DNA from: an uncultured Acidobacteriota bacterium | GTDB lineage: Bacteria; Acidobacteriota; Vicinamibacteria; Fen-336 | Reading direction: 5' to 3' | Assembly (NCBI GenBank): GCA_963720545.1 | Contig: OY970399.1 | Coordinates: 1,920,001 to 1,984,000 of the forward strand | Length of the DNA: 64,000 nucleotides | Part shown: positions 16,374-51,484 of the stretch, piece after piece | How the letters are laid out: each line of letters begins with the position of its first letter | Position numbering within the stretch: position 1 is the first letter of the stretch | Made by a program: the position numbers and the translations under genes | The notes under the pieces: model-generated | The model's database searches: none | What the model was told of the DNA's origin: nothing | The model's input: the letters and a program-made list of their open reading frames with translations, nothing else

Positions 16374-16523
16374 GCTCCTTGGGCTTGCGCTGAGAGCGAA
16401 GCCCTGAGGAGCGTAGCGACGAAGGGAAGGACCCGCCGTTGCCGATCGTTCCTTTCACTCGTCTAGCAGTCAACGTACTGCTAGACGGCCAAACGGCTCC
16501 CGCCACTGTGTCCGGACACAGTG
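16374..16523. repeat. Cluster of inverted repeats between convergent genes (REP-like element, terminators or structured RNA)
   Basis: Interrupted hairpin 16374-16412; perfect 11-bp stem 16460-16487; perfect 20-bp palindrome CACTGTGTCCGGACACAGTG 16504-16523. Confidence 0.6.
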
Positions 16524-16572
16524 AGCCCTGGGTCACGGCACAAGCGTTGGTGGTCCTCGGGAAAATCCCTGC

Positions 16573-18741: not shown

Positions 18742-18797
18742 GGAGCCTCCTGGCTCGGATGGTACATCGTCTGCCGGCATCGTCTATTCTTCGAGCC

Positions 18798-20795: not shown

Positions 20796-20806
20796 GAGTG
20801 CTCGCG

Positions 20807-23889: not shown

Positions 23890-24327
23890 ATGAAGCGTTT
23901 TTTCCCGTCCCTCGCCATCACCGCATCGCTCTTCTTCCTGCCCGCGTGCGGCGACAAGTCGCCGACCGAGCCGGCGCCGCAGCCGAGCGGCGACTCGGTG
24001 GTGATCGCCGCGATCACTCCGGCAACCAGCACTGTCGTGGCGCCGGGGCAGACGATCGACTTCGCCGCTGTGCTGTCCTATCGCCTCGACAGCGCCGACA
24101 ACGGCCGACTGATCCTGACCGTTCGCGACCAGGCGAATCGCAGCCTGCTGCCGCCGGCAACGCCCAGCGCTTTCAACATCACCCGCGGCTTCAACCGCCT
24201 CAACGTCGCCTATCCCGTGGCGGTGCCGCCCAGCGGCGTCTCCAAGGTGATCGTCAAGCTCGAGATGTTTCCCGGCGCGACCACAGCGGCCAGTGCCGGC
24301 GTCTCGGTGGAGTACGACGTGCGCTAG
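23890..24327 (+). CDS. Hypothetical lipoprotein (beta-rich)
   Basis: GGAG RBS; lipobox-like FFLPAC followed by GDKSPTEP. Confidence 0.7.
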   Translation: MKRFFPSLAITASLFFLPACGDKSPTEPAPQPSGDSVVIAAITPATSTVVAPGQTIDFAAVLSYRLDSADNGRLILTVRDQANRSLLPPATPSAFNITRGFNRLNVAYPVAVPPSGVSKVIVKLEMFPGATTAASAGVSVEYDVR

Positions 24328-26048
24328 CGGCCCGCGCCGGCGGCTGGTGCTGCCGTGCGCAGGCAAAGGCCGACGCGGTGGCCGAGGCCACGGCCGGTGA
24401 CGACGTAACCGCCGGCAGTGCGTGTGATGCGATCGGCGGGACTGGGCAAGGCGCCCCAGTCGCGCACGCGCGCGATGCGTTCGTGTGCCTCGTCGTAGGC
24501 GAGGCATGCTGCGGCACCGTCCGGCTTGCGCACGTCGAGGCACCAGGTGCCGCCGCGCCATGCGATGGCGAGTCCCGCGACGCCGGCGCCGAACGCGCGT
24601 TCCACCTCGCGATCGGACCAACGCCGCTCCCACTCCCGTGCCGGGTGCTGCGCATGCGCCACGACCGGCTCGCCGTCGTCCGTGCCGCCCCAGACGGCGT
24701 GCGGCGAGAGTGGCTGCGAACCGCAATCGGACGTCCAGTGTGCAGGGCCCGACGCGTGCGCCTGCGCTTGAGCGGCGGACCACTCGGCGTCAGTGAGGAT
24801 GCGCGCTCCGGCGCCACCTGCGTCTGCAACGGGTGAACGCGGTTCACTCCAGCTGAGGTAAGGCCCGCGGCCGACGAACCACGCGCAGTGGGTGGAATCG
24901 CAAACGTCTGCGTCGGCGTGGCGCTTGCCCGCAGCGGTGAAACGCAGCACGGCCGCCGCCAGCTCGACGCGATGATCGGTGCGCGCCGGTCCCAGCTCGG
25001 CGAGCAGCACGCCGTTCGCGTATTCGCGGCGGCTCATGCCCGCAACGAGTGTCAGTGTGCGGCCGCCGCCAATCGCCACGCTGCCAACGATCCGCCGGCG
25101 CGTCCGCGGCGAGGCGATGCGCAGTTCCCAGTTCCCCGTCTCGAGGCGGTCGCCGGTGCGTAACGTGAGGGTGCCGCCCGCGCCGACGAAGCCGCGGTTG
25201 GTGCCAATCGGCGCGCTGCCCAGGTTCGTTGCCGTCACCGCGGCTGGCTGCAGCAATTCGAACAATCGCACCCGCACCTCGGCACGTTCGACTGGAATCG
25301 CGGCGGCCGGCTGTGTCGATGCCGGGCGATAGGCGATCGGCCCTCGCGACGTTGACGGGTGACGGTCGGCCACCACCGTTGCCATCCGTCCGGCCGCGTC
25401 CCTTCCGGTGCCAGGATCGAGCATGCCGAGCGCCGCCCATCCCGCGTCGTCCACGGCAAGCGCCAGTCCGGCCGTGCGCCACGCCGGTCCGGCCGCTGAC
25501 TTCACGGTGCCCGTTTTCGCCCACAGCCCGCGAGTGTGCATCGCGGCGGATGTGCCGTCGAGTGCGCCGTCGCGCAGCCCGGCGAGCAGTACGGTACGGT
25601 GCCGCTCGCCCGCTGGCCACGGCTCGCGCGTCAGCTTCACGTACGCCGCGAGCAGCTGCGCTGGCGCGATGCGCAGCGGCTCCGCGACGGCCGGCAGGCC
25701 GATGGCGCCATCGGCCGAGAGCGCCGCCGGCACCACGAAACCGTTGGCGCGCAGCACCGCCGCAAGCCGCTGCGCCGGCACGAGGTTCGCCAGCGCGCGA
25801 AAGTACGTATTGCAGGAGACGGCCGCCGCCTGCCGCAGGTCGAGCGTGCCGTGTCCGCTCGAGCGCCAGCAACCCGAGCGCCGGTCGCAGGTGACAACAG
25901 GAGCGTCGCCCTGCGGATACGTCTCAGCCCAGGCCTGCGCCACGAACGGCTTCGACAGGGAGCCCACCGCGATCGGGTCGCTGCTTCCAACCTCGGCACC
26001 GCCTGCGGTCCACAGCCGGAACACCGCGGCCAGCGCGAACAGGATCAC
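24324..26048 (-). CDS. PBP-transpeptidase-like domain fused to SpoIID/LytB-like domain (YfaQ/DUF2300-like)
   Basis: GSLSKPF (SxxK), SCN (SxN), AKTGT (KTG); then EYANGVLLAE, DVCDSTHC, GRGLGHRVGLC; GTG start inferred. Confidence 0.75.
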   Translation of the reverse strand: MILFALAAVFRLWTAGGAEVGSSDPIAVGSLSKPFVAQAWAETYPQGDAPVVTCDRRSGCWRSSGHGTLDLRQAAAVSCNTYFRALANLVPAQRLAAVLRANGFVVPAALSADGAIGLPAVAEPLRIAPAQLLAAYVKLTREPWPAGERHRTVLLAGLRDGALDGTSAAMHTRGLWAKTGTVKSAAGPAWRTAGLALAVDDAGWAALGMLDPGTGRDAAGRMATVVADRHPSTSRGPIAYRPASTQPAAAIPVERAEVRVRLFELLQPAAVTATNLGSAPIGTNRGFVGAGGTLTLRTGDRLETGNWELRIASPRTRRRIVGSVAIGGGRTLTLVAGMSRREYANGVLLAELGPARTDHRVELAAAVLRFTAAGKRHADADVCDSTHCAWFVGRGPYLSWSEPRSPVADAGGAGARILTDAEWSAAQAQAHASGPAHWTSDCGSQPLSPHAVWGGTDDGEPVVAHAQHPAREWERRWSDREVERAFGAGVAGLAIAWRGGTWCLDVRKPDGAAACLAYDEAHERIARVRDWGALPSPADRITRTAGGYVVTGRGLGHRVGLCLRTAAPAAGAGR

Positions 26049-26087
26049 GCCCGTAGTATCCCAGAGCCAGCGTTGGCGGGGACTAAG

Positions 26088-26867
26088 ATGCCTGCAGTGG
26101 CCACCACCGATGAGTACACGACGGACGGCCGCCGGTTCCCCGTATTCCTCACCGCCGAATGGCGCAACCTCGTCCTCGTCAACTGGGAAGTCGCGCGCGG
26201 CGTGGTCGCGCCGCTGGTCCCGCGCGGCACCGAACTCGACGAGTGGAGGGGCCGCACTTATCTGAGCCTCGTCGGCTTCATGTTCCTGAAGACCAGGGTG
26301 CGAGGCGTGGCGATTCCCTTTCACCGCGACTTCGAGGAGGTGAACCTGCGCTTCTACGTGCGCCGCAAGTCGCAGGAGGGCTGGCGCCGCGCCGTGGTGT
26401 TTGTGAAGGAGCTGGTGCCGCGCGCCGCGATCGCCTTCCTCGCCCGCACGCTGTACAACGAGAACTATCAGGCGGTGCCGATGAGCCACGAGTTCCAGGA
26501 GGCTCCGGGTTCGCCATGCCGCATCGCATCGGTTTCATACGGCTGGCGCATCGCCGGACGCAGCAACCACTTGAGGTTGGCCGTGGCTGTCGAGCCGCAG
26601 CCGCTCGTGAGAGGCAGCCAAGAGGAATTCATCACCGAGCACTACTGGGGCTACACCGCGCAGCGCGACGGCGGCACGGTCGAGTACCACGTGACCCACC
26701 CGTCCTGGCGCGTCGCCCCCGCTACTGCGATCGACGTCGACTGCGATTTCTCCGCCAACTACGGCCCGGCGTTGGCGGAATCGCTGCAAGCCGCGCCCGA
26801 CTCCGCCTTCCTCGCGGACGGCTCGGCGGTCTGCGTCTCGCGCGGCGTCCGCTTGACGGACATCTGA
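26088..26867 (+). CDS. DUF2071 (YqjF) family protein
   Basis: FLTAEWRNL...FEEVNLRFYV...EEFITEHYWGY...YHVTHPSW; start ATG 26088 or GTG 26097. Confidence 0.88.
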   Translation: MPAVATTDEYTTDGRRFPVFLTAEWRNLVLVNWEVARGVVAPLVPRGTELDEWRGRTYLSLVGFMFLKTRVRGVAIPFHRDFEEVNLRFYVRRKSQEGWRRAVVFVKELVPRAAIAFLARTLYNENYQAVPMSHEFQEAPGSPCRIASVSYGWRIAGRSNHLRLAVAVEPQPLVRGSQEEFITEHYWGYTAQRDGGTVEYHVTHPSWRVAPATAIDVDCDFSANYGPALAESLQAAPDSAFLADGSAVCVSRGVRLTDI

Positions 26868-26956: not shown

Positions 26957-27427
26957 ATGCGACGAGTGTTCATGCTGGCGATGGCGGGGTTGCTGATGGC
27001 CGGCGGGGTACGGGCGGCGGATGCGCCCGATGCGGCGGCGCTGACGAAGATCCTCAAGGAGTTCCTTGCCGGTGCGCAGTACGACGCGAAGATGCACGAC
27101 CGTTTCTGGGCGGAAGACCTCATCTACACGAGCTCGGCCGGCAAGCGCATCGCCAAGTCGGACATCATGGCCGAGATGAAGGACGCGAAGCCGCCGCAGC
27201 CGGGCGAGCCAAGCACCGTCTTCTCCGGCGAGGACATTCGCGTCCAGCAGTACGGCGACACGGCGGTGGTGGCGTTCGTGCTGGTCGGCAAGACCACCGA
27301 CGGCGGAAAGACCACGGAGCAGCGCTACCTCAACACCGGCACCTTCGCGAAGCGCAACGGTGAGTGGAAGGTGGTCGCGTGGCAGGCGACGAAGGCGGCC
27401 GAACCCGAGGCGGCGAAGGCGAAGTAG
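26957..27427 (+). CDS. Exported NTF2-like (DUF4440) protein
   Basis: AAGGAG RBS, signal peptide, WAEDLIYTSSAG, YGDTAVV, WKVVAWQAT. Confidence 0.85.
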   Translation: MRRVFMLAMAGLLMAGGVRAADAPDAAALTKILKEFLAGAQYDAKMHDRFWAEDLIYTSSAGKRIAKSDIMAEMKDAKPPQPGEPSTVFSGEDIRVQQYGDTAVVAFVLVGKTTDGGKTTEQRYLNTGTFAKRNGEWKVVAWQATKAAEPEAAKAK

Positions 27428-27434: not shown

Positions 27435-28970
27435 TCAGCGCGGTTCGAAGACGACTCGCTCGCTCCATCCTGTGGCCGTCTTCCTGCGCTCGACGGACAG
27501 CGCCTTCGTTTCCGGCAGCCATCCGAGGAGCCCGAGGATCCTGTCGGAGAACGGCCGGATTGTTTCGGGCGAGGCCGGGCCCTCGGCCGACTCCCATCGG
27601 TGCGCTTCCGAGGCAACAGCTTCGAGATCGAGCCGGCCCCAACGCAGCAATTCAGCCGCAGGCTGCGGTGTGGGCACCGTCGCGAGCGCTGCCGCCGTCG
27701 AACCGAGCCAAAGGAAGCCACCGGTGCGCCGCCAGGCGACTGCCGGCAGGCCGGGGCCGAGCCGGATCTCGGTGATGCCGTTGGCCGCGTGCGTTTCGAT
27801 GCGCGCGCCGCGCCTGGTGAGGGTGGCGGCGAACAGGCGAGCGATCTCCGAGTCTTTTTCCTTTGGCCACGCGAAGGCGACACGCCGCGCTCCGTCCCGG
27901 GCGATTTCGTAGCCGAAGCCGGCCGGCGGGTTGCCGGCGAACAGCCTGCGCCAGGCATCGAGCTCGCCCGCTTCCCACGCCGTGCCGGCGGCCGCCATCA
28001 GCGGCTTGTCGATGCGCACCGCATAGGCATCCTCGGCTTCCTGCGCCTTGGCCGGCGGCAGGTCGGCGCTTGCGACGAGCGGTGTCCGCGACAGCGAGGG
28101 CAGCGGCTCGAGCAGCGCGCCGCGCAGCATGTCGAGCAAGTTCTCGGCCTGCGAAAGCGGCAGCCATCCGGCCGCCGCGGCGCCCGGCGCAGCGAACGTC
28201 GCGGCCGGAGCGCTGCTTCCACCCGTGCCCTCGCGCATCTCGACGAGCTGGCTGCCCTCGAGGCGCAGCGCCGCGCGCACGTGGCCGCGCGCTCCGCTGT
28301 CGCCGAACAGGAACTCGCGCCGGAAATAGCGATCGACGCCGAGCTTGTCCATGTCGAGGTCGAGCGATGCGAGGCCCTGCAACAGCTGCGCCGGCGCGGC
28401 GCCCGAACGCGCAGCGTCGAGCGCCAGCCTCATGGCGCGCTCGCTCGTGGCGAGGATGAGGCGGCCGCCGGCGAGCTGCCAGGCGAGGCCTGCGCGGCGC
28501 GACGCGTCGCCGGCGCCCGGTTCGTCGGCGGCGCCCGCGGCAACGAAGTTGTAGGTGCTGCCTTCATGGGTTCGAACCACGCCCTTGGGCGGCGCCAACG
28601 GCAGCGCTGCGAGCGGCGTCTCCACGACGAGGACGGCCTCGAGCGCGCCGATGTCGAGCACCGCGATGCCGATCGACGTGGGACGAAGGCGCCTTATCTC
28701 ACTCCACGTCCACGGCAGGTCCTTCGCGAACTTGCCCCACTGATCCTCGAGCTTCGCGCCGATGCGGGAGGCGCGGAAGCCGGCCGCGACCGGCTCACCG
28801 TCGGGCAGGCTGCCGCTCAACGCCTCACGGAAGCGCCCGGTGAGCGCCGCTTCGAACGCGGCGGGATCCTCGATGACGAGCCGTATCGGCGCCGGCGGCA
28901 GCGGCGGGGCCGCGTGCACCACGGAGGTCGTGAGAAGAGCGGCCAGCAGCTGTGGCGAGAGCAGCCTCAC
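27435..28970 (-). CDS. Exported hypothetical protein, 511 aa (last gene of the VIT-vWA operon)
   Basis: Signal peptide ending VVHA; GTGA overlap with the upstream giant gene; protein-like composition. Confidence 0.75.
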   Translation of the reverse strand: MRLLSPQLLAALLTTSVVHAAPPLPPAPIRLVIEDPAAFEAALTGRFREALSGSLPDGEPVAAGFRASRIGAKLEDQWGKFAKDLPWTWSEIRRLRPTSIGIAVLDIGALEAVLVVETPLAALPLAPPKGVVRTHEGSTYNFVAAGAADEPGAGDASRRAGLAWQLAGGRLILATSERAMRLALDAARSGAAPAQLLQGLASLDLDMDKLGVDRYFRREFLFGDSGARGHVRAALRLEGSQLVEMREGTGGSSAPAATFAAPGAAAAGWLPLSQAENLLDMLRGALLEPLPSLSRTPLVASADLPPAKAQEAEDAYAVRIDKPLMAAAGTAWEAGELDAWRRLFAGNPPAGFGYEIARDGARRVAFAWPKEKDSEIARLFAATLTRRGARIETHAANGITEIRLGPGLPAVAWRRTGGFLWLGSTAAALATVPTPQPAAELLRWGRLDLEAVASEAHRWESAEGPASPETIRPFSDRILGLLGWLPETKALSVERRKTATGWSERVVFEPR

Positions 28971-31900
28971 CGCTCGACTCCCTTCGCGGCGGCCGTCTCC
29001 GCCGCCACGATGCGGCTCAACAAGTCGAACGTCAGGTCGCCGGGGGCGTAGGGCCGGGCGCTGTTGCCGGCGGGCACGAACGGCAGTGGCGGCTCGGTTT
29101 CGATCGGGCCGAGTTCCGCGCGCAATGCGGCTGCCGCGGTGCCGTCGCGGTCGGCGAGCGCCGTGAAAGCGGCGTCCTCCAGGGCGCGGTCGCGCCCGCC
29201 GCGGCCGATGCGCGCGAGGTCGCCAAGCGCCGCATCGACGTCGGCCTTGCGGTAACCGCGGCGTGACAGCTCGTTCGCGAGAGCCGTCGCCGAGGTGCCG
29301 GTGAGTTGCCCGGCCGCCGCCCGCGGCGAAGAGGCGAGCTGCGCGCGCGCCGCACGCAAGCGCAGGACCGAGGTGTCGTCCGAATCGCGGATGCCGTTCA
29401 TCGCCGCGTCGTCCAGGGCGTCCACGACGCGCTCGATCGCGTCCGCGTCGAGCGGGCCAAGCGCTCGCAGCGCAGCACGCGCGGACAGGACGTCATAACG
29501 ACGGGCCGCGAGGTGTGCGCCGAGTCCCGCCGCGGCTTCCCCTGCGGGCTTGCGCCAGAACGGTGCCGCGGCGCTCCATGCGGCGGGTGTTCCGGCGGCC
29601 GGCGGCAGCGCCAGCCGCCGCCACAGGTCGAAGGCGCGGATCTCGTCGGTGCGTGTCCAGCCGCCGCGGCTGCGGCCGCTCGCCAGGGTCGCGGCGGCAG
29701 CGGCTGTGTCGCCGGCATCGCGCCACAGGCGTGCGCGCCGCGACACGGCGTCGAACGTGAAGGTCTCCTCGGCGCGCGCCATCCAGCGTCCGACCTCCGC
29801 GCGCGCGTAGCGCGCCAGCGATGCCGCGATTGCCGGCACGCTTGCGGCCGTCAGGTCGCCTCGGATCCACGCGTTTTCGAGCTCGGCAATCACGGCTGCG
29901 CGCCCCGGGCCGTCCTCGACGGCGAGCGCGAGGTCCCACGAGTCGGCGCTGGAAATGCCGGCCGCGCGCTGCGCCCGCAGCGCGGCACGGAAACGCTCCC
30001 GCACGACGTCGGCGTTCGCGCCTTTTCTGTCCACGAACGCCTCGTGCCAGGCGCGGAGTCGGGCGAGCCTTGGGTCGGCAGGCTCTCTGCCGCTGTCTTC
30101 GGGAATCTGCAGCCACGGCTCTTCGCCGGCGGCTACCGGCGCCGGCAGAGCGACGGGTTGGTACGCAAGCGCGGGTGCCTGCTCCTGCTCCGCAAGCATT
30201 GCGTCGAGCATGGCGAGCGCCACGCCGTGGTCGCCGCGCAACAGCGCCGCGCGCGCCAGTAGCAGGCGGCCGCGCTCGCGCTCCGCGGGTGCTTGGAGCT
30301 TCTGGTTGAGGGCCTCGATTCCTGCCGTGTCGGGAAGTGCACGCAGCGCGGCAAGCGCTGCCTTGCGGTCGGCCACGGCGAAGTCGGACATCCAGCCCGA
30401 GGCGTGCGGCCAGATTCCCCCGAGGACGCCGAGCCGGCCCTGCGGCAACCCGGCCGCGCCGCTCGCCCACAACTCGTCGAGCCACGTCTCGATGTCGGCG
30501 CGATCGAGGCTTGCCGCGCGCCTTGCAAAACGCACTGCGAGCGCGGCGCGATAGCCGACGGGGTCGCTCGTGTGGAGCCGGGCGGCCGCTTCCGCGCCGT
30601 GAACGTCGCGTACGTACGCGAGGACGCCGCCGCCAATCGGCACAGTCGCATCGAGCACGCCAACGGGGGCCGCGAGTTGGAGGTCGGCGGCGAGCATCGA
30701 CAAGTCGCGTAGCCGGGCTTCGCCCAGGTTCGCGGGATCGGCATTGACGGCGTCGCGCCACAGCCGCGCGGCCGCCGCGCCATCCGCCGTGCGCAACGTT
30801 TGCAGCCGCAGCCGCAACACGGCGAGATCGCGGGTGCCGAGGGCGCCGGCCTCGAGCACCTGGCGCGCAAGGGCCGCGTCGCCGAGCGCCGCGGCCAGGC
30901 GCGCAGCGAGAGCCACGCGTGCGCTCTCGCCGCCGCGTTGCGGCGTCTCGAGAACGGCAAGCGCCGCGCCGGCATCGTTGCGACGGTAGCGGACGAGCGT
31001 CTCGAGGGCGAACCAGGACGGGCCCGGCCAGCCGCCCCACTGGTCGAGAAAGGGGCGCGGCTGTGCTTCGACCACCGCGCCGACGGTGCGCGGGCCGCGC
31101 AACGCCGCGAGTGCGGGATCGTCCTCGGCGGGTACGGTCCGCGAGTGGATGAGGCCTGTCAGCACACGGCCCGCGGCGGTCGTCTTCAGGAACGCGTCGC
31201 GATCACCGGTGCCGAGCTGCGCGACGAGCGGCCCGAGTCGCCAGCCATGCGCGCCCAGTTTCAGGAAGCGCGCGAATCGCTTCTCGTCGGTGAACGCCGT
31301 TGCCAGCTCCGAGACGAAGGCGGTGTCGCCCACGGCGCCGCGCACGAACGTTTCCATGACGACAGGGTCGTCGAGCCAGGCGGTCCAGGGGAGGCGTTCC
31401 CTCACGGTGTCGGCTGCTGGGCTCGCGGCCTGCGCGATGAGCGCCTGAACTCGCGGGCGCAAAAATACGGTGAGTTCCGCGGGCCGGTCGCGACGCGCCA
31501 GGTCGCGCACCCACAGCGCCTCGAAATCGGGCGCGCCGAAGACATAGCCGCCGCCCGTGTCGGTCACGACGACGCTCGCGGCACTGGCGACGAACGCCTC
31601 GCTCGGCTGTTCGCGCCAGGGCGCTCCAGGCGGCGACCCGGCGATCAGGCGCCGCGCGATGGCGGTGCGCACATGAGCCGCGATCGCCGCTTCCTCGATG
31701 GCGGGCCACCATTGCCTCAGCGCCGCGACGTTCCCCGCCGGCTTGTCGTACAGGCGCTTCATCACCCACGCCTCGAATTCCTGAAGCTGTTCCGGACGCG
31801 CGTATTCCTGCAGCGTCCGCGCCACCGCGAGCCGATGGTCGCCGTCACCGGCCTTCGCCGCCAGGAACCGCAGGACGGAATCGTTCATGAGCGCAAGGCG

Positions 31901-34900
31901 TGCACCGGCGTCGCTGCCGAGCTGCGAATCGGCGACGCCTGCTGCCTTGCCGTCGGGGGCAAGCAGGTGCCACGCTTCCCTGGGCAGGCCGGCATCGATG
32001 AGCCGGCGTGCGGCGCGCGACGCGCGCGCCGACGCTTCGTCCTGGTCTTGCGCAACGCCGGCCTTGCGATACGCATCGAGAGCGGCGCGTTCCACCGCCA
32101 GCGCCGACGCCGCGTCGCCGCCGCGCGCATAGAGCGAGGATCGCCAGCCCGCAACCGCCTCGTCGGCCGGCCGCGGGCGGTTCCAGCCCTCGAGAAAGCG
32201 TGCGGCATCGACGCTGCGTCCCGCGCGCACCAGCAGGTCTGCCGTCTCGCGCCACAGCGACTCGCGCTCGGGACGTACCGCGGTCGCGGCCTGCGCCATC
32301 ACGATGGCGCCGTCGAGGTCGTGGTTCGCAAGACGCAGCTCGCGCACCGCCACCGCCCAGCGCACGTCGCGCGGGCTGCGTAGCTGCTGCCTCTCGAAGT
32401 GCTGCAGCAGCTCGGCCATGCGGCCGCCGCGCTGCGCGGCGCGCGCCGCCGCGCTGAGCCACGGCCGCTCGACGCGCCGGTTGAGCGCCTCGATGTAGAG
32501 AGCCATTGCCGCAGCCGGCTGCTTCTCGTCGGCGGCCGCCCCGGCCAGCTCGGCCCACAGGTAGGGCCTGCGCTCCGCGGCAAAGCTCGGCTCTTCCCCG
32601 GCCGCCATCGCGACGAGGTCCGCGTGGGGATCGCGGCGCAGCTTCAGCCGCGCGAGCAGGCGCAAGGCGCCAAGGCGCGCACTGGCATTGTCCTCGCCGT
32701 GGGCAGCGTTCGCCGCATCCAGCAGTGCTGTGGCTGCGCGTTCGGCGCGCGCCAGGTCGGATGCCGCGAGCGAGTCGCCGGTGAGGCGCGCCAGCAGGTC
32801 TTGCCGATGGCCACTTGCCGCGCTCGCGGCCGCCGCCTCCAGGACTGCGCGCGCCTCGTCACCGCGGCCAGTCCGATTGAGGAACGAAACGCGGTCGTCG
32901 AGGAGGCCGAGACTCCACGGGTAGCGCTCCCCCAGCTTGTGCCATTCGGCCGCCGCCGCTGCAACACCCTGCGAGCGTTCGAGCCACGCAAGTCGTGCCG
33001 CCTCCACACGCAGGCGCAGCGGCGTTTCGCCCATCGCAGGCAGGCGCGCCGCCAGCGCCCGCCATGCCGACTCCGCTTCGGCATCGCGTGCGGCCGCGGC
33101 CAGGAGCTGCGCGCGTTCGAGCTCGACTCGCAGCCGCTCGTCCGCGGTGGGCGCCAGTTCCGCGCGGCGCGCGAGCACCGCGGCGCGGAACCCGACGTGC
33201 TGGTCGCGCGACAGCGACTGGACAGCGATGCCCTCGACGAGCGCGGCGGCGCGATCGAGAAACTCGGTCGAGGAGGCACGGGCGATGAACGCGTTCGCCT
33301 GCGCAACGAGATGCTGGCGCACGGCGAGAATGCCCGCGTGGTGCGCCCCGCGTGCCGCGTCCATGGCGGCCTGCCGCTGCTCGCGGCCGACGGAGTCGTG
33401 CGGCAGATCGGCGGCGTCGATCCAGTCGTCCACGTCCCACTCGAGTCCGGGCGTGGTGTCTGCGATGGTGCCGAGCGGGAAGAGCGCGGCCAGGCGGCGT
33501 TCATCGGCCTCGCTCCCCGCCTCGAGCTTGTCGATCGTAGCGAGGATTCCGGCGCGTGTGCGGTCGCGGCCGAGGAGCTGCACCAGGCGCCGCAGCGAGC
33601 GCTGGTCTTCGTCGAACGCCGAACAGAAGCAGGTTCCGTCTTCGGGCAGAGACGCCTGAAGATACTCGACCACGGCAGCGTTCGGGTCGCCGCGCTCTTC
33701 GCGAAGGACGCCCGCCTCGAAAGCCAGAAGCCGCGGCTGCTTCAACGTCACGCGCGCCGACTCGATGGCGGCGAGCGCCTCGGTGGTGTGGCCATAGTCC
33801 CAGAGGAGCGCCGACAGCCGGTCGGTTTTCGGCGCCACGTCGCCCGCACCGTCCAGCAGGTGCTGCCAATCCGCGAGCGCCAGGTCGGGACGGCCGATGT
33901 CTTCGTGAAGCTCGCCGAGGGTCGTCCAGAGTGGCGCAGCGTCGGGCAGCGCCGGCGCCGTGCGCGCCACGAGCGCCGCCGCGCCTGCGGCATGCGCTGG
34001 CGTGAGCGGCGCCAGCGAGCGGTGCAGCGACAGCGCTGCGCGCGCCAGCGGCTCCTCGCCCGGGTAGGCCGCGCTCAGCCGGTCGGCCGCCGCGTGCGCT
34101 TTCTCGAAGAGCGACAGCCGGCTCCAGCCCTCGTAAAGCAGGAGGTCGCGCACCGGATCCTGCGCGTCGCTCTTCTCGAGCACCTCGAGCCGCTCCTCGA
34201 GGTCGCCACGCTTCATTGCCGCCGCGAACCACCGCTCGCGCTCTCCCGAATCGACGAACAGGACGGCGTAGCGGCGCTCGGTGAGGAGCGCTTCGTAAGA
34301 GTCGAAGCCGTTCCTGCGGACGAGACGCGACGCGGCCTCGCGATAGACGGTGGGGCTGTGCGGAAAGCGCTCGAGGGCGCGCAGGCGCACGAAGTCGGCG
34401 AAGCGCACCAGGCGCACGCGCGCGCCCGGGGCCGGTGCTGCCGACGGCAGGGGCAATTGCAGGCTCTGGTCCGCGTCGCTGCGGGCGAAGATGTCGCTGC
34501 CGCGGAAGCGCGCCACCAGCTTGTCGGCCAGCGCCTGCAGTTCGGCGGTGCGCTTGCGGCGGGCATAGTAGCGCGCGAGCTTCGACCACCAGCTCGCGTC
34601 GTCGAACGCGGCGATCGCCTTCTCGTAGCGCGGCGCCAGCTCGTCGTCGAGATTCCACTGTTCGAGGCGCGCCGCGAGCTGGAGCCAAAGGGCCTCCGCG
34701 CGCGGCAGGCGGTCCATCTCGCCAAGCATCAGCGCGACCGAGGCCTGGTGCGAAGGGTCGAGATAGTCGGCGCGCGCCAGGGCGTCCTCGAGGACGTTGC
34801 GGTACGAATCCTGCGGTTCGGCGGCCGGCAGCTCGGCGTCGGTGTCGTCGTAAGGCTGCGGCGGCGGGTCCCACGCCGGGACCGCGCCATCGGCTGCGAG

Positions 34901-36403
34901 CGCTGCAAGGCGCGCGCGGTAGAGACGCAGCTCGGCGTCGAGCGGCGCCTTGGTCAGCCGCATGGCAAGGAGCGCCGTGCGGCGGGCGCGATCGGCGAGT
35001 GCGCTCTCACCTGCTTCGAGCGCCGGCAGGAGCGCCAGCGCCGCGGCGCCATCGCCTTGCTCGACATGGCGCTCCATGATCGCGAGCCGCAGGCGCGGCA
35101 GCGCGGCGTGCGCCGGTGCGCGCTTCGTGAGCTCGTCCACGAGGGCGCGCGCCGCAGCGAACGTGCGCACGCGCACCGAGTCGGACGCGAGCCGTGCGAG
35201 CGCTTCCTTCCAGTCGGTGCCGGTCAGCAGCAGCGAGAGGCCGCCGGTCCAGAAGCCGGGCGTCTCATCGAGGCGCGCGACCCAGGCGTACGGTTCGTCG
35301 CTGTAACTGCCCCAGGCCAGCGGGCGGCCGCCGGCACGCAGCGCCTGGTCGGCGAGGGCGGCGAGGTCTTCGACCTGTTCCGTCGCCGAAGCACCGCTCG
35401 CCGCCGCGAGCCGGGCGCGGAATGCCTCGGGGCCTGCGTCGATGATGTCGTAGCCGCGCGCGAGCGTCAGCCAGCCCGCGCGCCCCAGGATGCCGCCGTC
35501 GCGGCGGTCCACCTGCCGCAGCGCCGCCAGGGCAGCGTCGCCGCGGCCCTGGCCTGCGAAGTACACGACCAGCCGGACCAGGGCGTTCGCGTCGAAACCA
35601 GCGGCCAGCTTTCCCCGCCACTCTTCCGGCACGCCCGGCGCGGCCTTGTCGACCCGCGCGGCAAAGGCGCGTAGCGCGTCGCGGCTGCGGAGCGACTCGA
35701 CCTCGTCGTCGAGTGTGCGCAACGCTGCGCGCCAATCCTGCCTTGCGGCATGCGCCAGCGAGGCGACCACGGCGCGCCGCTCCCGATCGAGCAGCGCCGC
35801 CGGCATGGCGGCGAGCGCCGTCAGGGCTTCGTCCGGCTGGTGATCGCGGACCAGGACTCGCAGGAAGCGTTCCGCCGCGCGCGCGTCGTTTGGAGTCAGC
35901 GCGACGTGCTCGCGGTACAGCGCCAGAACGTCGACGCCTTCAGGCTTCGCCTCGGCCCAGGAGATGCGCTCCCGGGCAAGCGCCAGCCGTGCGTCGGGGT
36001 CGAGGCCGGGCAAAGCGGACGCGGCCGCCTTGTAGGCGAACGTGTCGTCGCCGCGCTCGTGCGCCCACCGTGCGGCCTCGGCCCAGGCCGCCGGCCCGCC
36101 ATCGGGCGATTGCGCCCACGACTCGAGTGCGCGCAGCGCGCCGGCGCGGTCGCCAAGCCGCATGCGCGCCTCCGCCAGGTGGCGCAGCGCCATGGGTCCC
36201 GGTTGCGTTTCGAGCGCCGCCAGCAACTCACGCGTCGGCGTCTCGTAGTGGACCTCGTGGCCATCGAGCAGCGCCGTACGTGTCGCCGCACCGAAGATGG
36301 CATCGCTCTTCGCGAGCTCCTCCCACGGAACATACGAAGACGCGGCGAGGCCGAGCGCGGCGAGCGCCAGGACGGCCGGCCGGCTGCCGAAGGTTGCGCT
36401 CAC
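28967..36403 (-). CDS. Giant (~2480 aa) exported alpha-helical TPR/solenoid-like protein
   Basis: Uninterrupted 7.4-kb frame; GTG at 36403 overlaps the upstream TGA; hydrophobic N-terminus; TPR-like segments (LWTTLGELHEDIGRPDLALADWQ, LWRETADLLVRAGRSVDA). Confidence 0.8.
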   Translation of the reverse strand: MSATFGSRPAVLALAALGLAASSYVPWEELAKSDAIFGAATRTALLDGHEVHYETPTRELLAALETQPGPMALRHLAEARMRLGDRAGALRALESWAQSPDGGPAAWAEAARWAHERGDDTFAYKAAASALPGLDPDARLALARERISWAEAKPEGVDVLALYREHVALTPNDARAAERFLRVLVRDHQPDEALTALAAMPAALLDRERRAVVASLAHAARQDWRAALRTLDDEVESLRSRDALRAFAARVDKAAPGVPEEWRGKLAAGFDANALVRLVVYFAGQGRGDAALAALRQVDRRDGGILGRAGWLTLARGYDIIDAGPEAFRARLAAASGASATEQVEDLAALADQALRAGGRPLAWGSYSDEPYAWVARLDETPGFWTGGLSLLLTGTDWKEALARLASDSVRVRTFAAARALVDELTKRAPAHAALPRLRLAIMERHVEQGDGAAALALLPALEAGESALADRARRTALLAMRLTKAPLDAELRLYRARLAALAADGAVPAWDPPPQPYDDTDAELPAAEPQDSYRNVLEDALARADYLDPSHQASVALMLGEMDRLPRAEALWLQLAARLEQWNLDDELAPRYEKAIAAFDDASWWSKLARYYARRKRTAELQALADKLVARFRGSDIFARSDADQSLQLPLPSAAPAPGARVRLVRFADFVRLRALERFPHSPTVYREAASRLVRRNGFDSYEALLTERRYAVLFVDSGERERWFAAAMKRGDLEERLEVLEKSDAQDPVRDLLLYEGWSRLSLFEKAHAAADRLSAAYPGEEPLARAALSLHRSLAPLTPAHAAGAAALVARTAPALPDAAPLWTTLGELHEDIGRPDLALADWQHLLDGAGDVAPKTDRLSALLWDYGHTTEALAAIESARVTLKQPRLLAFEAGVLREERGDPNAAVVEYLQASLPEDGTCFCSAFDEDQRSLRRLVQLLGRDRTRAGILATIDKLEAGSEADERRLAALFPLGTIADTTPGLEWDVDDWIDAADLPHDSVGREQRQAAMDAARGAHHAGILAVRQHLVAQANAFIARASSTEFLDRAAALVEGIAVQSLSRDQHVGFRAAVLARRAELAPTADERLRVELERAQLLAAAARDAEAESAWRALAARLPAMGETPLRLRVEAARLAWLERSQGVAAAAAEWHKLGERYPWSLGLLDDRVSFLNRTGRGDEARAVLEAAAASAASGHRQDLLARLTGDSLAASDLARAERAATALLDAANAAHGEDNASARLGALRLLARLKLRRDPHADLVAMAAGEEPSFAAERRPYLWAELAGAAADEKQPAAAMALYIEALNRRVERPWLSAAARAAQRGGRMAELLQHFERQQLRSPRDVRWAVAVRELRLANHDLDGAIVMAQAATAVRPERESLWRETADLLVRAGRSVDAARFLEGWNRPRPADEAVAGWRSSLYARGGDAASALAVERAALDAYRKAGVAQDQDEASARASRAARRLIDAGLPREAWHLLAPDGKAAGVADSQLGSDAGARLALMNDSVLRFLAAKAGDGDHRLAVARTLQEYARPEQLQEFEAWVMKRLYDKPAGNVAALRQWWPAIEEAAIAAHVRTAIARRLIAGSPPGAPWREQPSEAFVASAASVVVTDTGGGYVFGAPDFEALWVRDLARRDRPAELTVFLRPRVQALIAQAASPAADTVRERLPWTAWLDDPVVMETFVRGAVGDTAFVSELATAFTDEKRFARFLKLGAHGWRLGPLVAQLGTGDRDAFLKTTAAGRVLTGLIHSRTVPAEDDPALAALRGPRTVGAVVEAQPRPFLDQWGGWPGPSWFALETLVRYRRNDAGAALAVLETPQRGGESARVALAARLAAALGDAALARQVLEAGALGTRDLAVLRLRLQTLRTADGAAAARLWRDAVNADPANLGEARLRDLSMLAADLQLAAPVGVLDATVPIGGGVLAYVRDVHGAEAAARLHTSDPVGYRAALAVRFARRAASLDRADIETWLDELWASGAAGLPQGRLGVLGGIWPHASGWMSDFAVADRKAALAALRALPDTAGIEALNQKLQAPAERERGRLLLARAALLRGDHGVALAMLDAMLAEQEQAPALAYQPVALPAPVAAGEEPWLQIPEDSGREPADPRLARLRAWHEAFVDRKGANADVVRERFRAALRAQRAAGISSADSWDLALAVEDGPGRAAVIAELENAWIRGDLTAASVPAIAASLARYARAEVGRWMARAEETFTFDAVSRRARLWRDAGDTAAAAATLASGRSRGGWTRTDEIRAFDLWRRLALPPAAGTPAAWSAAAPFWRKPAGEAAAGLGAHLAARRYDVLSARAALRALGPLDADAIERVVDALDDAAMNGIRDSDDTSVLRLRAARAQLASSPRAAAGQLTGTSATALANELSRRGYRKADVDAALGDLARIGRGGRDRALEDAAFTALADRDGTAAAALRAELGPIETEPPLPFVPAGNSARPYAPGDLTFDLLSRIVAAETAAAKGVER

Positions 36404-38697
36404 GGCTGCACCAGTACTGTCGCGCGCACGAAGGAGTGGTTCTTTGCGGCGTCCACAGCTTCGAAGAGGACCGGCAGGCGGCCCGCCGCGTTCGCCGGCA
36501 CACGCCAAGTCCCCACCGAGCGGCGTGTCGCGGGATCCCACCGCAGCGCCACCGGCGCCTGTTCGCCAAAGCGCGCCGTGAGGACGATGACGTCCTCGTC
36601 GGCGCCGGCCGCGATCAGAACCGAGTCGCCCATCCGTACCGTCGCCGGCAGTTGCGGCGTGAGCCGGGGCGCCGTGCCGTCGATCACGAACTCCTTGTTC
36701 TCGGAAACCGCCAGGCCGCTCTCATCCTTAATAAGGATGCGTACGCTGTAGCGGCCGTCCCGGAGGCCGGACGGCACCAGGAAGCGTCCTTCCCAGACGT
36801 TCGACCGTGGCCGGCGCCGCAGCGGCAGGCGCAGTCCGAAAGGAAGGAGCGCCGTCGCCGCCACGGTGCGCGCGTCGCATTCGACGCGTAGCACCGGATC
36901 GCCCGGCTGGATGCGGCGCGGGCGCAACAGCGAGCGCGGGGCGGCCAGGAACGCCGTGTAGGGTGTGACGAATTTGTAGCGGCGTGACAATTCGACGATC
37001 TCGTCCACCAGCGCGCGCGTCTCGCCCTCGGCCTCGACGCGGCGCAGCAGTTCGTCCACGCGAGCGCGCGCCCAGCGCCGCGGCAGGTCGCGCGCTTCGC
37101 TCGCGGCCTCCGGCAGCGCCGCCGTGATTGCCGCCGCGGCGTCGTTGAAGCTGAACCGCAGGCTCGCCTGCGGTACGGCGTAGCGGCCGATCCAGCCCGA
37201 AGCCGAGCCGGGAGCGATCGGCTGCACCATCACCGGATACACGTCGCGAATCCTCGCCTCGCCGCCTTTCACCTGGAACGGCAGCCCGGGCGACCGCGGC
37301 ACGGCCTCGCCGCTGTCGGCGCTGGCAGCGCCGGCGAGAAAGCTCGCGATGAACGAGCTGCGCTCCGGCGCGCTCGACAGCGGCGTGACGATGGCGCGCG
37401 CCGCGTTGCGCAGCGACTCGGGCGTTTCCGCGCCGCCGATCGAAACGAACAGCGGCGCACCACCCGCGGCTTGCCGCAGCGCCTGCGAACCCTCGTGACC
37501 GCTGCCGTCGGTCAGCAGCAGGATCGCGGCGCCGCCAATGGCCCGAGCGCGCGCGACCGCGGCCGCGACGTCGGTGCCGGGCGCCAGCAGCCGCGCACGC
37601 AGCCGCAGCAGGCTGGCATCGATGGCGGCGGCCGTCGCTGCTTCGAGGACCGGGCCGGCTTCGGGCTGTCGATCGAATGCAATCACGGCGAAGCGGTCCG
37701 CGGGCGTCAGCGAGCGCAGCACGTCGGCGAGCAGCGCGTACGACGATTCGAGGCCGGCAAAGCGGTGGCTCAGCGACGTGTCGAAGAGAAAGACGAACTG
37801 CCCCGGCTTGCGCGGCGGCGACACAGCACCGCCATCCGCAGCACTGCCAGTGACATGCGGTGCGTATTCGAGAAGGAAGAAGCCGTCCTTCTCCGGCGGA
37901 ATCTCCGCTGCGCGCTCCCAGGGGGCCAATGCGATGCCGTCGGGCAGCCGGCCGTCGGGAGTGCGGAACGCGGTGAGGCGAAGCACGGGCGTGCCGGCCC
38001 GCGGCCGCAGGCGCACCAGCAGATCCTTGTCGAGCAGCGCATTTTTCGCGGTGAGCCCGAGACCGTCGGCATCCGCTGCCAGCGTCAAGCCCCCGGCCGG
38101 CGCGGACAGCTCGCCGTCGGCGGAGCGCACGTGAATGCGCAAGGTGCGCGCACGCGCCGGCATCCCTTCGTTCGCACGCAGCGCCACGCGCAACTCGCTG
38201 CTGCCGCCGATGAGCGGCACCTCCTGCTGGAACTGCAGCTCGAGGCGCTTGGTGCCGCGCGGCGGGATCGGCGCAATCGCGACCGAGAAGAGCGAACCGC
38301 CCGAGGGCCGCGCCGGACCCGCCGCGTCGCCGCCGCGGTCGTCCTCGTCGCCTTGCTGCAGCAGTCCTGGATCGATGCGCTGCGTCGTGAGGTCGCGGTA
38401 GATGGCGCGCGCCCGCCGTTTCTCGAGGATCATGCCGGGGATCCGCACGAGGCCGTCCCACACGGCGAAATCACCAACCGCCGCGGAGGGCGGCAGGGTG
38501 AAGCGCCAGCTGCCCTCCTGCGGCGCGTCGGTGTGGTTCTCGAACACCTGGCGCACGTTGACGCGCGCGTAGCCGCGCGCGATCTCCGCCTCGATCGTCA
38601 TCTCGCGCAGCGACACGACCGCCGCGTCGGGGCGGCCGGTGCTCGTGGGAATGAGCAGGCCTGCTTGCGCGACGAGCGTCAGCAGCACGGGCGTCAT
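36400..38697 (-). CDS. VIT (vault/inter-alpha-trypsin) plus vWA domain protein with C-terminal Ig-like domains
   Basis: VIT: ARVNVRQVFENH...EGSWRFTLPPSAAV. vWA MIDAS: FLFDTSLS, GT, LLTDG. ITIH-like LSRRYKFVTPYTAFL. Confidence 0.88.
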   Translation of the reverse strand: MTPVLLTLVAQAGLLIPTSTGRPDAAVVSLREMTIEAEIARGYARVNVRQVFENHTDAPQEGSWRFTLPPSAAVGDFAVWDGLVRIPGMILEKRRARAIYRDLTTQRIDPGLLQQGDEDDRGGDAAGPARPSGGSLFSVAIAPIPPRGTKRLELQFQQEVPLIGGSSELRVALRANEGMPARARTLRIHVRSADGELSAPAGGLTLAADADGLGLTAKNALLDKDLLVRLRPRAGTPVLRLTAFRTPDGRLPDGIALAPWERAAEIPPEKDGFFLLEYAPHVTGSAADGGAVSPPRKPGQFVFLFDTSLSHRFAGLESSYALLADVLRSLTPADRFAVIAFDRQPEAGPVLEAATAAAIDASLLRLRARLLAPGTDVAAAVARARAIGGAAILLLTDGSGHEGSQALRQAAGGAPLFVSIGGAETPESLRNAARAIVTPLSSAPERSSFIASFLAGAASADSGEAVPRSPGLPFQVKGGEARIRDVYPVMVQPIAPGSASGWIGRYAVPQASLRFSFNDAAAAITAALPEAASEARDLPRRWARARVDELLRRVEAEGETRALVDEIVELSRRYKFVTPYTAFLAAPRSLLRPRRIQPGDPVLRVECDARTVAATALLPFGLRLPLRRRPRSNVWEGRFLVPSGLRDGRYSVRILIKDESGLAVSENKEFVIDGTAPRLTPQLPATVRMGDSVLIAAGADEDVIVLTARFGEQAPVALRWDPATRRSVGTWRVPANAAGRLPVLFEAVDAAKNHSFVRATVLVQP

Positions 38698-38717
38698 TGC
38701 GTCATTGGGTCATTGCG
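38691..38717. repeat. 8-bp tandem repeat (CAATGAC[C/G] x3 on minus strand) at a gene junction
   Basis: Plus strand GCGTCATT GCGTCATT GGGTCATT GCG. Confidence 0.8.
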
Positions 38718-40485
38718 CCGCGATCCGCAGGCGCGCGATGCCGGCGTCGGTGCCGACGTACAGCCAGCCGGAGTCGGCGAGCAGCGCGCTGATGCGCGCG
38801 GACGGCAGCAGGAACTCCACCGGCTCGAAGTGGTCGCTGCCGGGTTCGCGGACGAACAAGCCGCGGTCGTCGGTGCCGAGGAATAGCCGGCCGCGGGCGT
38901 CGACCAGGCAGCCCGGGTTGACCTTGAACCCGGCGGTCTCCGGATAGGCAACGAAGCGGCTGGCGCCGCTTGGTCGCCGCGCGACGCCGCCGCCGTAGGT
39001 CGCGACATGCAATCCGTCTTCGGTCTGCGCCAGTGCGCTCACCCATGGATTCGGCAGCGCGCTCTCCGCGGCGCCCTGCAGCAAAACGCGGGTGCCGCCA
39101 ATTGCGCCCAGGCCCGACGGCGTGCCGACATAGAGGGCATCGGTGAAGAGCAGCGCCAGCGCCTGGTTCCCCGGCAGGCCGTGGAACGCCGAGAGCATTC
39201 CGGAGTCGCCGAGCTTCACGCCCTGGCCGTAGCCGATCGCAACGCCCTGCGGTGTTGCCACCAGCGAGAACGCAGCGCCCGGCCCTTCGATGTCCTCGAC
39301 CCGCCCGCCCGCAACGCGGCTCGCACCGCGCAAGCTCGCGACGAACAACGCGCCGCCCGAAGGCAACAACGCGTTGACGCCCCAGATGCCAGCCGCCGGA
39401 ACCCGGCGCAACGTTATCCCCGGCGCACGCTCCGTTCCCAGGTAGAGCCCGTCGTCGAACAGCCCCACCGCAAGTTCTCCGGAAAAGCGCGCCAGGGCGC
39501 CGACATGAAAAGCACCCGTGGCGGTCGACGCTGGACGCGGCGAGACGGAACGAAATCCCGAACTGGTGTGCGTCATCAGCCCGGCGGCGGTATCGACGTA
39601 GAGCGTGCCGCCGACGGCGAACAAGCGGCGCCCGGGCGCGGGCAGCATTTCCTCGCGCCACACGCCGCCGGCAAGGCGGTGCAGCGACTGCGACCACTCG
39701 CCGGCGAGGCCGAACACCTCGCCTTTGGCTGCGACCGCGGTGGTGATGAACGATCCGCCGTGCGTGAGGGCGAAGCCGGCGCCGGTCGCGCGTTCGAGGC
39801 CGCGGGCGCTCACCGCGAACAGCTGGCCCGAAGCGACGAACAGGTTCTCGACCCATGGATCCTGGGTGGCGAGCGATTCGGTCAGCGTGCCCGCGGTACG
39901 GAACGCGCCGCGTTCGCCGCCCGACAGGATGGCGCCGTCCTCGGCGAGCGCGATGGCGCGCACCGGATGCGCGGCGAGCCGCTCCATCTGCGCACCGCCG
40001 AAGGCGACGCGCAGCAGGCCCTCGCGCGCACCGATGAGCAGTTCGCCGCCGGTGGTCTCGGCGAGCGTCCGCACGTGCAGCAGGCCGAAGCCGCTGCGCA
40101 TCTCCGCCCATTCGCCGCCGCGGCGCACGAACAGGCCGCCGTCGGTGGATGCCGCCACGAGCCGGCCGCGCCAGGAGTGGAGCGCCGACATTTGGCGCAG
40201 CGGCAGCGCGGCCGACAGGTCGGTGCGCTCCGCTCCCGCGGCGATGCCAAAGCCGCCGGCCAGGATGAGGCCGTCGTCGGTTGCAGCAACCGCCTGCACG
40301 TCACCGCTGGTCGCGACGATCGCCGCCGCCGGCCGCGGCGGAACCGCGGCGAGGCTGAACGCGGCGACGTTGGCCGGCGCCGGCGCGTATGCCTCGTTCA
40401 CTTGCCGGCGCAGCGCGACCGCCGCAACCAGGGCAACGAGCGCGACTGCGACCAGCGACGCGGCGGCGATGCGGCGAGGGTTCAA
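38710..40485 (-). CDS. Membrane-anchored or exported beta-propeller protein (Reg_prop-like repeats)
   Basis: N-terminal TM; repeated blades LVAASTDGGLF, LLIGAREGL, LYVGTPSGL, LHVATYGGGV, LFLGTDDRGLF, LYVGTDAGI; start TTG 40485 or 40527. Confidence 0.8.
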   Translation of the reverse strand: MNPRRIAAASLVAVALVALVAAVALRRQVNEAYAPAPANVAAFSLAAVPPRPAAAIVATSGDVQAVAATDDGLILAGGFGIAAGAERTDLSAALPLRQMSALHSWRGRLVAASTDGGLFVRRGGEWAEMRSGFGLLHVRTLAETTGGELLIGAREGLLRVAFGGAQMERLAAHPVRAIALAEDGAILSGGERGAFRTAGTLTESLATQDPWVENLFVASGQLFAVSARGLERATGAGFALTHGGSFITTAVAAKGEVFGLAGEWSQSLHRLAGGVWREEMLPAPGRRLFAVGGTLYVDTAAGLMTHTSSGFRSVSPRPASTATGAFHVGALARFSGELAVGLFDDGLYLGTERAPGITLRRVPAAGIWGVNALLPSGGALFVASLRGASRVAGGRVEDIEGPGAAFSLVATPQGVAIGYGQGVKLGDSGMLSAFHGLPGNQALALLFTDALYVGTPSGLGAIGGTRVLLQGAAESALPNPWVSALAQTEDGLHVATYGGGVARRPSGASRFVAYPETAGFKVNPGCLVDARGRLFLGTDDRGLFVREPGSDHFEPVEFLLPSARISALLADSGWLYVGTDAGIARLRIAAQ

Positions 40486-51386: not shown

Positions 51387-51484
51387 GTTCCTCCGGGGTT
51401 CAACTAGCAATGTACGTCATCCGGCGCCGTAAGTTCAGCTAGACTTCGCCTTCTTCACCCACGGATTCATCTCGGAGGCGTTTC

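Follow-up and report, generated by a model that had tools for sequence, protein, structure and literature searches.

A conserved Acidobacteriota gene cassette combines a beta-propeller, an ITIH-like VIT-vWA protein, a giant TPR protein and a SpoIID-type enzyme

Introduction

The class II alpha-2-macroglobulin (A2M) operon magABCDEF of Pseudomonas aeruginosa encodes a coupled set of exported proteins, one of which is membrane-anchored (PMC5764988, partial text). Among the inter-alpha-trypsin inhibitor heavy chains (ITIH), the ITIH1-type fold has been called integrin-beta-like (PMC7170535, partial text), and ITIH4 captures proteases in a manner that depends on its MIDAS (metal-ion-dependent adhesion site), including a required threonine; the bait regions of A2M are variable (both PMC7793589, partial text). 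Here we analyse a locus in a 64,000-nucleotide stretch of DNA (the window) from an uncultured Acidobacteriota bacterium (assembly GCA_963720545.1, contig OY970399.1, positions 1,920,001 to 1,984,000 of the forward strand). Five of its genes, encoding a double beta-propeller, a VIT-von Willebrand factor A (vWA) protein, a tetratricopeptide repeat (TPR) giant, a 511-residue exported protein and a fused penicillin-binding protein (PBP)/SpoIID enzyme, form a conserved cassette whose members are retained together beyond linkage.

Acidobacteriota are abundant in soil and sediment, and their envelope biology is little studied. A sequence-only reading of the locus had proposed an operon for four exported proteins, possibly related to the macroglobulin system, and knew of no characterised system with this gene set. 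That last statement agrees with the literature searched, in which no description of the set was found (most subscription journals and supplements lay outside its scope); the partial text of a paper on lipocone proteins (PMC12419801) likewise holds nothing relevant to it. The cassette is apparently undescribed, and we tentatively propose that its products may position a wall-cutting enzyme in the periplasm.

Results

A conserved five-gene cassette

Open reading frame (ORF) analysis of the window bore out four coupled genes on the minus strand, as the sequence-only reading had described them. They encode the double propeller (38710..40485; 591 residues from a TTG start; Pfam Reg_prop), the ITIH-like VIT-vWA protein (36400..38697; 765 residues; Pfam VIT, VWA and Big_13), the TPR-type giant (28967..36403; 2478 residues from a GTG start, with a weak TPR_19 match under the Pfam cut-off) and the 511-residue exported alpha/beta protein (27435..28970), which matched zero Pfam families. 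The genes are joined by one 12-bp gap and two GTGA overlaps, and their codon-position GC content is gene-typical (GC3 0.85-0.86, GC2 0.55-0.57). The 12-bp gap between the propeller and VIT genes (38694-38715, minus strand) holds three tandem CAATGAC copies, as if an ATGA overlap had been duplicated by slippage. The PBP/SpoIID gene (24324..26048, minus strand; 574 residues from a likely GTG start) lies 1387 bp downstream of the 511-residue gene, close to the 1.4 kb noted earlier, and belongs to the cassette.

A search for related loci, based on an alignment of 71 homologues of the 511-residue protein (out of 120 among the matches listed), found 82, of which the best 80 were retrieved; a search with the single sequence had returned nothing. 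Nearly all of the locus records carry an Acidobacteriota label, among them Holophagaceae, Vicinamibacteria and Thermoanaerobaculia, with one labelled Deltaproteobacteria (L079) and two labelled just 'bacterium'. Wherever there was enough flanking sequence, the TPR gene precedes the 511-residue gene (75/75 loci) and the VIT gene precedes the TPR gene (51/51), and the propeller came first in all six genomes that were read further upstream. The PBP/SpoIID gene follows the 511-residue gene in 66 of 70 loci with enough flank, which makes it the fifth member of the cassette. It mostly sits directly after that gene, usually with no gap at all, so the two plus-strand genes that intervene in the window are a local insertion. 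The order propeller-VIT-TPR-511 is held in distant loci at 20-35% identity, many of which close with PBP and SpoIID as two genes. The genes flanking the cassette vary between loci. Small genes are present between the VIT and TPR genes in two genomes (L103:3168-4587 and L105:4732-5226, in G221 and G050), one of them with an RHS-repeat match.

The association also holds at the level of whole genomes. A broader profile of the 511-residue family, run over 401 genomes of the phylum, detected it in 43, or 41 after two genomes with 56-position matches near E 1e-3 were dropped (G271 and G304), placing the cassette core in about one in ten of the Acidobacteriota genomes sampled. The full-length VIT family is present in 40 of the 401, and 39 of these have the 511-residue family too; these counts exclude a shorter standalone VIT family, which occurs as the only type in seven genomes and as extra copies in G050 and G221. 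The TPR profile was run on 301 genomes (listed handles all within G000-G300) and matched 35, exactly those carrying the 511-residue family, with VIT present in 34 of the 35. Both VIT and propeller are absent from one genome that keeps the 511-residue and TPR genes (G114), indicating that the two were lost together, and a genome in which the locus meets a contig end (G395) has the 511-residue family without VIT.

Co-retention extends to genomes in which the genes are no longer neighbours. The four genes of G281 are spread along one contig at approximately 1.74, 2.01, 2.19 and 2.44 Mb, with a similar situation in G160, and in two further genomes (G089 and G101) each of the four genes is present twice, with one set (mostly) clustered and the other scattered over different contigs. 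Copies that had not been used as seeds scored E <1e-165. The four proteins, whose co-occurrence in other genomes had been suggested as a check, are thus found in a fixed order across the phylum and remain together when unlinked. In G281, where the TPR giant is scattered, a gene about 1 kb downstream of it (L187:1630-2589) has, by eye, a MoxR-like Walker A segment; no such gene was seen in other loci.

The PBP/SpoIID enzyme

The PBP half is a minimal PBP2-type transpeptidase (PBP2 matches at E 4e-7) with SxxK (serine codon at 25961), SCN and KTG motifs; SxxK and SCN are kept in 67 of 68 aligned rows and KTGT in 66. The SpoIID half displays a glutamate at the catalytic position together with an RH..CDxTHC zinc-type motif, both conserved in the family, although only the split homologues, and not the window copy, score above the Pfam cut-off for SpoIID. 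The corresponding glutamate and Cys/His residues (the zinc site) matter for the SpoIID of Clostridioides difficile (PMC6221140, partial text), and on the strength of this motif match the SpoIID half is a putative lytic transglycosylase. Profile comparison relates the fusion distantly to E. coli YfaQ (hhalign, 304 columns, E 1.7e-4), one of the gene types that the sequence-only reading had placed in bacterial A2M operons; pairwise BLAST alone against YfaQ was not significant. Deletion of yfaQ in E. coli gives a phenotype that connects it with genes of the envelope and peptidoglycan (PMC12282094, partial text).

We next consider whether the enzyme depends on its position. Five cassette genomes without an intact enzyme gene beside the core were followed (G281, G050, G221, G270 and G199). 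The first four of these possess an unlinked SpoIID with the RH..CDxTHC motif, and these proteins group with the cassette SpoIIDs (quick tree; Shimodaira-Hasegawa-like approximate likelihood ratio test (SH-aLRT) support 87-94, not starred). Five control genomes without the cassette gave partial SpoIID matches only, and the zinc-type motif was absent from the three examined. Since the zinc-motif SpoIID is kept unlinked and a cassette-type PBP was mostly not found, the lytic transglycosylase appears to travel with the core and the transpeptidase to be optional.

Wall-lytic motifs of this kind could also serve contact-dependent attack, in which the surface proteins would deliver SpoIID/PBP activity to the wall of a prey cell or competitor. 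The patchy distribution (roughly 10% of genomes, and none of the 38 sampled genomes of the host's own class by the 511-residue family) and the single match labelled Deltaproteobacteria are compatible with such a role. We nevertheless regard it as very unlikely, given that the loci show neither a recurring immunity-like gene nor a variable slot for effectors, that the enzymes show conservation and not diversification, and that the PADLOC defence scan returned zero matches.

The VIT-vWA protein

A structure model of the VIT-vWA protein (predicted local distance difference test (pLDDT) 83) comprises a beta-sandwich (residues 14-233), a vWA domain (297-462) inserted in a hybrid domain, a helical part with a near-invariant Arg-rich linker (538-601) and tandem immunoglobulin (Ig)-like repeats (602-765). 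The top fold match is human ITIH1 (6FPY; Foldseek E 1e-26; VIA Z 22.8, 476 residues aligned, root-mean-square deviation (rmsd) 6.0), and it spans the entire VIT/hybrid/vWA body, bearing out the ITIH architecture proposed from the sequence. Integrin beta chains are also among the fold matches. Macroglobulin (MG) domains are outside the listed fold matches, which barely probed the Ig part. The RxWA and FVTP motifs are common to the VIT protein and ITIH. A standalone VIT-vWA family of about 710-790 residues without Ig repeats exists in other Acidobacteriota (L148-L155).

ITIH4 is the best PDB sequence match (E 6e-7), which favours a protease trap resembling ITIH4 or A2M, whereby VIT-vWA would be cleaved by invading proteases and hold them via its MIDAS; by analogy, the partners would stabilise VIT as MagA/B/F stabilise MagD, and PBP/SpoIID would repair the wall. 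The MIDAS is complete in the window copy (D306, S308, S310, T375 and D397) and in 28 of 48 aligned members. It is incomplete in the other 20, with losses that include the threonine needed by ITIH4, and this weakens the 'MIDAS trap' of the sequence-only reading; the degeneration falls in one branch of the family. Moreover, the linker/helical region at the position equivalent to the bait (538-601) is short and the most conserved part of the protein (0.84 compared to 0.51 for the vWA domain), whereas A2M baits vary.

At its C-terminus the protein has a pair of mutually homologous Ig repeats (hhalign probability 95.8%, E 8e-9), standing in place of the ITI_HC_C domain, for which there is no Pfam match. 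Asp-Pro chemistry is a property of ITIH, and Asp600 and Pro601, which come after the shared FVTP motif, are invariant in 48/48 members. This raises the prospect of covalent glycan transfer as in ITIH1-3, with self-cleavage at Asp600-Pro601 attaching VIT to peptidoglycan or another glycan. Alignment of the two homologous repeats, however, puts the Asp-Pro pair in a turn of the second, the neighbouring residues match it in conservation, and an accompanying histidine is absent. We have therefore downgraded Asp-Pro autocleavage to an extremely unlikely explanation, and the invariant pair is probably accounted for by the turn. The C-terminus ends in an Ig strand without a sorting signal (model). 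A match of the C-terminal part to YfaP was considered and rejected, since the VIT profile does not match YfaP.

The cassette proteins carry export-type N-termini, in keeping with the hydrophobic N-termini noted earlier for the four, but the signal-like segments of VIT and PBP/SpoIID are only about 10 residues long here. For VIT, the propeller stop codon is in frame with the VIT start and thereby limits the segment to at most ~10 residues; VIT homologues elsewhere carry longer, typical signal peptides. The short start of PBP/SpoIID is common to nine related loci that have no insertion, on which basis truncation of its N-terminus by the inserted genes was rejected.

The propeller and its predicted contact with VIT

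From the sequence, 14 Reg_prop-type blades can be counted by eye in the double propeller, and the family alignment identifies the C-terminal propeller as the conserved half. The N-terminal segment resembles an uncleaved membrane anchor (Kyte-Doolittle 2.75) and is a probable inner-membrane anchor. In G281 and G160, whose VIT genes are scattered, a second, more distant propeller paralogue of 604 residues is encoded about 7 kb away from VIT (L140:3135-4949 and L141:3068-4882).

Complex prediction covered one pair, VIT 12-676 with propeller 310-591, picked because the genes are neighbours and G114 has lost both. The prediction scored 0.48 (runs 0.50, 0.20 and 0.48) against 0.09 for the best control, with the runs sharing at least 41% of contacts and the partners modelled at pLDDT of at least 82. 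The mark for a positive score is reached by 116/157 solved complexes and 2/215 mismatches, and passing scores at or below 0.60 comprise only 18 of the solved complexes together with both mismatches. The prediction lends weak support to binding of VIT to the C-terminal propeller.

The TPR giant and the 511-residue protein

The TPR giant is of helical-repeat type with a signal-like N-terminus. The TPR matches that are weak in the window copy become strong in distant members of its family, for which 214 homologues were found, including one named in Mesoterricola silvestris. Inspection of the giant revealed no catalytic motif, conservation being scattered and structural in character.

The model of the 511-residue protein (pLDDT 83) is closest to TP0453 of Treponema pallidum (3K8G; Foldseek E 5e-3; VIA Z 10.2, 193 residues aligned, rmsd 4.6). 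DUF3352-named clusters are its neighbours in the Atlas (0.96; one cluster contains 15% PF11832 members), while neither the window copy nor any of the 28 family proteins scanned has a Pfam match to PF11832 (DUF3352), and the lipobox cysteine is absent. YfaA was rejected as an identity for this protein at a profile probability of 0.1% (single-sequence template).

TP0453 is an outer-membrane-associated lipoprotein, judging by a paper title in a reference list, and the architecture of VIT-vWA-Ig recalls adhesins (SiiE and pilin-tip fold matches). These likenesses, along with a dedicated SpoIID kept with the core, would suit trans-envelope export or display, in which the transglycosylase opens the wall for surface passage of the TPR giant or the VIT adhesin. 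Dedicated transglycosylases do open the wall for secretion machines. We consider this unlikely, because the variable flanks of the cassette have no recurring gene for an ATPase, an inner-membrane channel or a beta-barrel, and the sortase/exosortase-target models are all under cut-off (82 bits for the VIT protein against TIGR03788 and TIGR02921, cut-off 552).

Relation to the A2M system

The host has an A2M of its own (2017 residues, CVEQ thioester motif), which is encoded as a standalone gene at G000:C1:3019049-3025102, 1.07 Mb from the cassette, and has no PBP1c or yfa genes beside it. DUF1175 (YfaT) and DUF2138 (YfaA) were not found in this 94.8%-complete genome, nor did a phmmer search of it for YfaP (DUF2135) give any match at E 1e-3. 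A2M is present in none of the 80 close cassette loci and is not enriched among cassette genomes (29/42 compared to 245/401 overall). Conversely, 20 A2M loci drawn from a high-scoring list include none with a core cassette gene and three with YfaT and PBP/SpoIID homologues. The A2M-linked PBPs group with generic PBPs (98/98), apart from the cassette copies, in the PBP tree; the A2M-linked SpoIIDs are also apart from the cassette copies, with weak support in the SpoIID trees, and did not show the zinc-type motif. An obligate A2M link was rejected on the basis of the 20 loci and the lack of enrichment. A close tie to the macroglobulin system, of which the sequence-only reading saw a possible relative, is thus not supported. 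Of the neighbours it had listed for checking, SpoIID tracks with the cassette, A2M is not enriched with it, and DUF1175 and DUF2138 were not found in this genome.

Several observations are relevant to the protease trap. Three of the 20 A2M loci of the phylum pair YfaT-A2M with a flanking YfaQ-type module, and in G361 a thioester-type A2M directly precedes a cassette-type VIT gene with a 22-bp gap (L143:3449-11867), an arrangement that weighs against a clean separation of cassette and A2M; the two are 4.5 kb apart in G101 (L147). Within family f41, A2M is absent from seven of eight cassette genomes and the cassette from 17 of 18 A2M genomes, a near-exclusion that could mean replacement and is confounded by one genus supplying 13 of the 18. 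Set against these are the lack of phylum-wide enrichment, the YfaA, YfaT and YfaP equivalents that were not found, and the MIDAS and linker data described above. Taken together, we judge the trap to be rather unlikely.

At six acidobacterial A2M loci (L160, L170, L175, L183, L184 and L186) A2M is followed by a hydrophobic protein of 245-315 residues and then by PBP/SpoIID, fused or split, with YfaT (DUF1175) upstream of A2M in all three whose upstream side was covered. This is apparently a variant of the yfa operon.

Surroundings of the cassette in the window

The insertion between the 511-residue and enzyme genes consists of two plus-strand genes assigned by Pfam and outside the system, a DUF2071 gene (26088..26867) and a DUF4440/SnoaL-like gene (26969..27427). 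The starts of PBP/SpoIID (minus strand) and DUF2071 (plus strand) are back to back, 39 bp apart (26048-26088). A promoter/terminator scan of 23.8-28 kb gave matches at chance level and no sigma-70-like site.

The GC content of the cassette (0.72-0.75) is above most of the window, which fits lateral acquisition and is also explained by the Ala-rich proteins. DNA repeats at 24-41 kb are limited to low-identity high-GC matches and propeller-blade repeats. Elsewhere the window contains an exported hydrolase run of two S9 peptidases and two amidohydrolases (13908-22846), a penicillin amidase (44029-46098), a GYF_2-AIM24 gene coupled to a DUF533/TerB gene (49705-51410, minus strand) and an ABC cluster made up of two MacB/FtsX permeases, a LolA-like protein, a 405-residue exported protein and an ATPase (54441-59622, minus strand).

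Discussion

The four exported non-enzymatic proteins and the zinc-motif SpoIID very probably constitute one functional unit, as far as can be judged from their sequences and inheritance, and their products probably assemble into one physical complex. Our preferred reading, to which we assign a probability of roughly 45%, is that this would be a scaffold in the periplasm, tethered to the membrane, which puts a lytic transglycosylase in position to remodel peptidoglycan locally. The invariant gene order, the exact co-retention when the genes are scattered or duplicated and the conserved enzyme motifs all support a single unit acting on the wall. In the proposed mechanism, the double propeller would be anchored in the inner membrane and its C-terminal propeller would bind VIT-vWA to form an integrin-like receptor pair. 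The TPR solenoid (2,478 residues) would start at this pair and, acting as a scaffold, run through the periplasm, carrying the TP0453-like 511-residue subunit, which may touch the outer membrane. The scaffold would place and gate the SpoIID lytic transglycosylase, which would open glycan strands, and the transpeptidase, where present, would re-crosslink the opened wall. Candidate purposes are repair, growth of a surface structure or making room for the complex itself. By analogy one might go further and picture an integrin-like receptor that senses a ligand or envelope strain and triggers local cutting of the wall by a lytic transglycosylase of its own, to which the 2,500-residue solenoid couples it; this more specific version we regard as doubtful.

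A number of observations weigh against the remodelling scaffold. The antisense insertion severs the enzyme gene from the operon in this genome, a promoter-like site was not found, and the signal-like segments of VIT and PBP/SpoIID are short. Four of the 70 close loci lack an enzyme gene nearby, and beside the four-gene core retained in G199 there is just a 146-residue SpoIID remnant. The PBP is dispensable, a cassette-type PBP not being found in four of the five genomes tested. VIT is present in G310, where the 511-residue gene is undetectable, and the genome counts include kin that are not independent and genomes from which profiles were seeded. The TP0453 likeness covers less than half of the 511-residue model. 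Finally, the VIT-propeller prediction is a weak pass, with one run under the mark and no interface returned, and its score could be inflated by likeness to solved propeller-vWA or integrin-type pairs.

A 15-kb gene set that is kept intact, or complete after scattering, over distant families points to a large undescribed machine. If our interpretation is right, the cassette would be the first bacterial setting in which an ITIH/integrin-beta-like protein has a defined partner, and would provide a new form of control over SpoIID-type wall enzymes outside sporulation. Should the receptor version also prove correct, it would represent a new class of trans-periplasmic machine with an age spanning many Acidobacteriota families. 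These ideas are directly testable, because the giant has a homologue in M. silvestris, which we take to be a cultured species, and the smaller subunits lend themselves to expression on their own.

The set does not belong to the mag/yfa, Bat/MoxR or sortase-target VIT systems, although every domain is of known fold. It resembles ITIH1/ITIH4 in its VIT/hybrid/vWA fold, its RxWA and FVTP motifs and the MIDAS of 28/48 members, and differs from ITIH in having C-terminal Ig repeats, no long variable protease-susceptible region and envelope partners encoded alongside. A membrane-anchored propeller beside a vWA-in-hybrid protein, with weak predicted binding, recalls the integrin alpha/beta headpiece; the propeller is, however, of the double Reg_prop type and the vWA protein lacks a membrane anchor, and we intend an analogy without claiming homology of the pair. 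Like Bat/MoxR-vWA systems (BatABCDE), the cassette brings vWA and TPR proteins together at the envelope, with BatB as a weak match. Unlike them, it has no MoxR or DUF58 gene recurring beside it (no search was aimed at DUF58), and AAA_3 matches in this genome are borderline only (best E 1e-5), for which reason a MoxR link was rejected.

NlpI and LpoA are TPR scaffolds for wall enzymes and are similar, by description, in being periplasmic helical-repeat proteins linked to peptidoglycan enzymes, whereas the TPR giant is several times larger and has three dedicated non-enzymatic partners. TP0453/DUF3352 proteins offer the best fold match and the DUF3352-named Atlas neighbours of the 511-residue protein, which is about twice their size and lacks both the lipobox cysteine and a Pfam DUF3352 match. 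The class II A2M operons (magABCDEF and E. coli yfaA-T-S-Q-P) share with the cassette the coupled genes for exported proteins, a single member with a membrane anchor, and a YfaQ-type transpeptidase with SpoIID. On sequence grounds, the cassette has this enzyme module in common with the mag/yfa operons without being a member of them: A2M, YfaA, YfaT and YfaP are missing from it, its enzyme module appears to be a separate zinc-motif lineage, and its core is instead built from a propeller, a VIT-vWA protein, a TPR giant and a TP0453-like protein.

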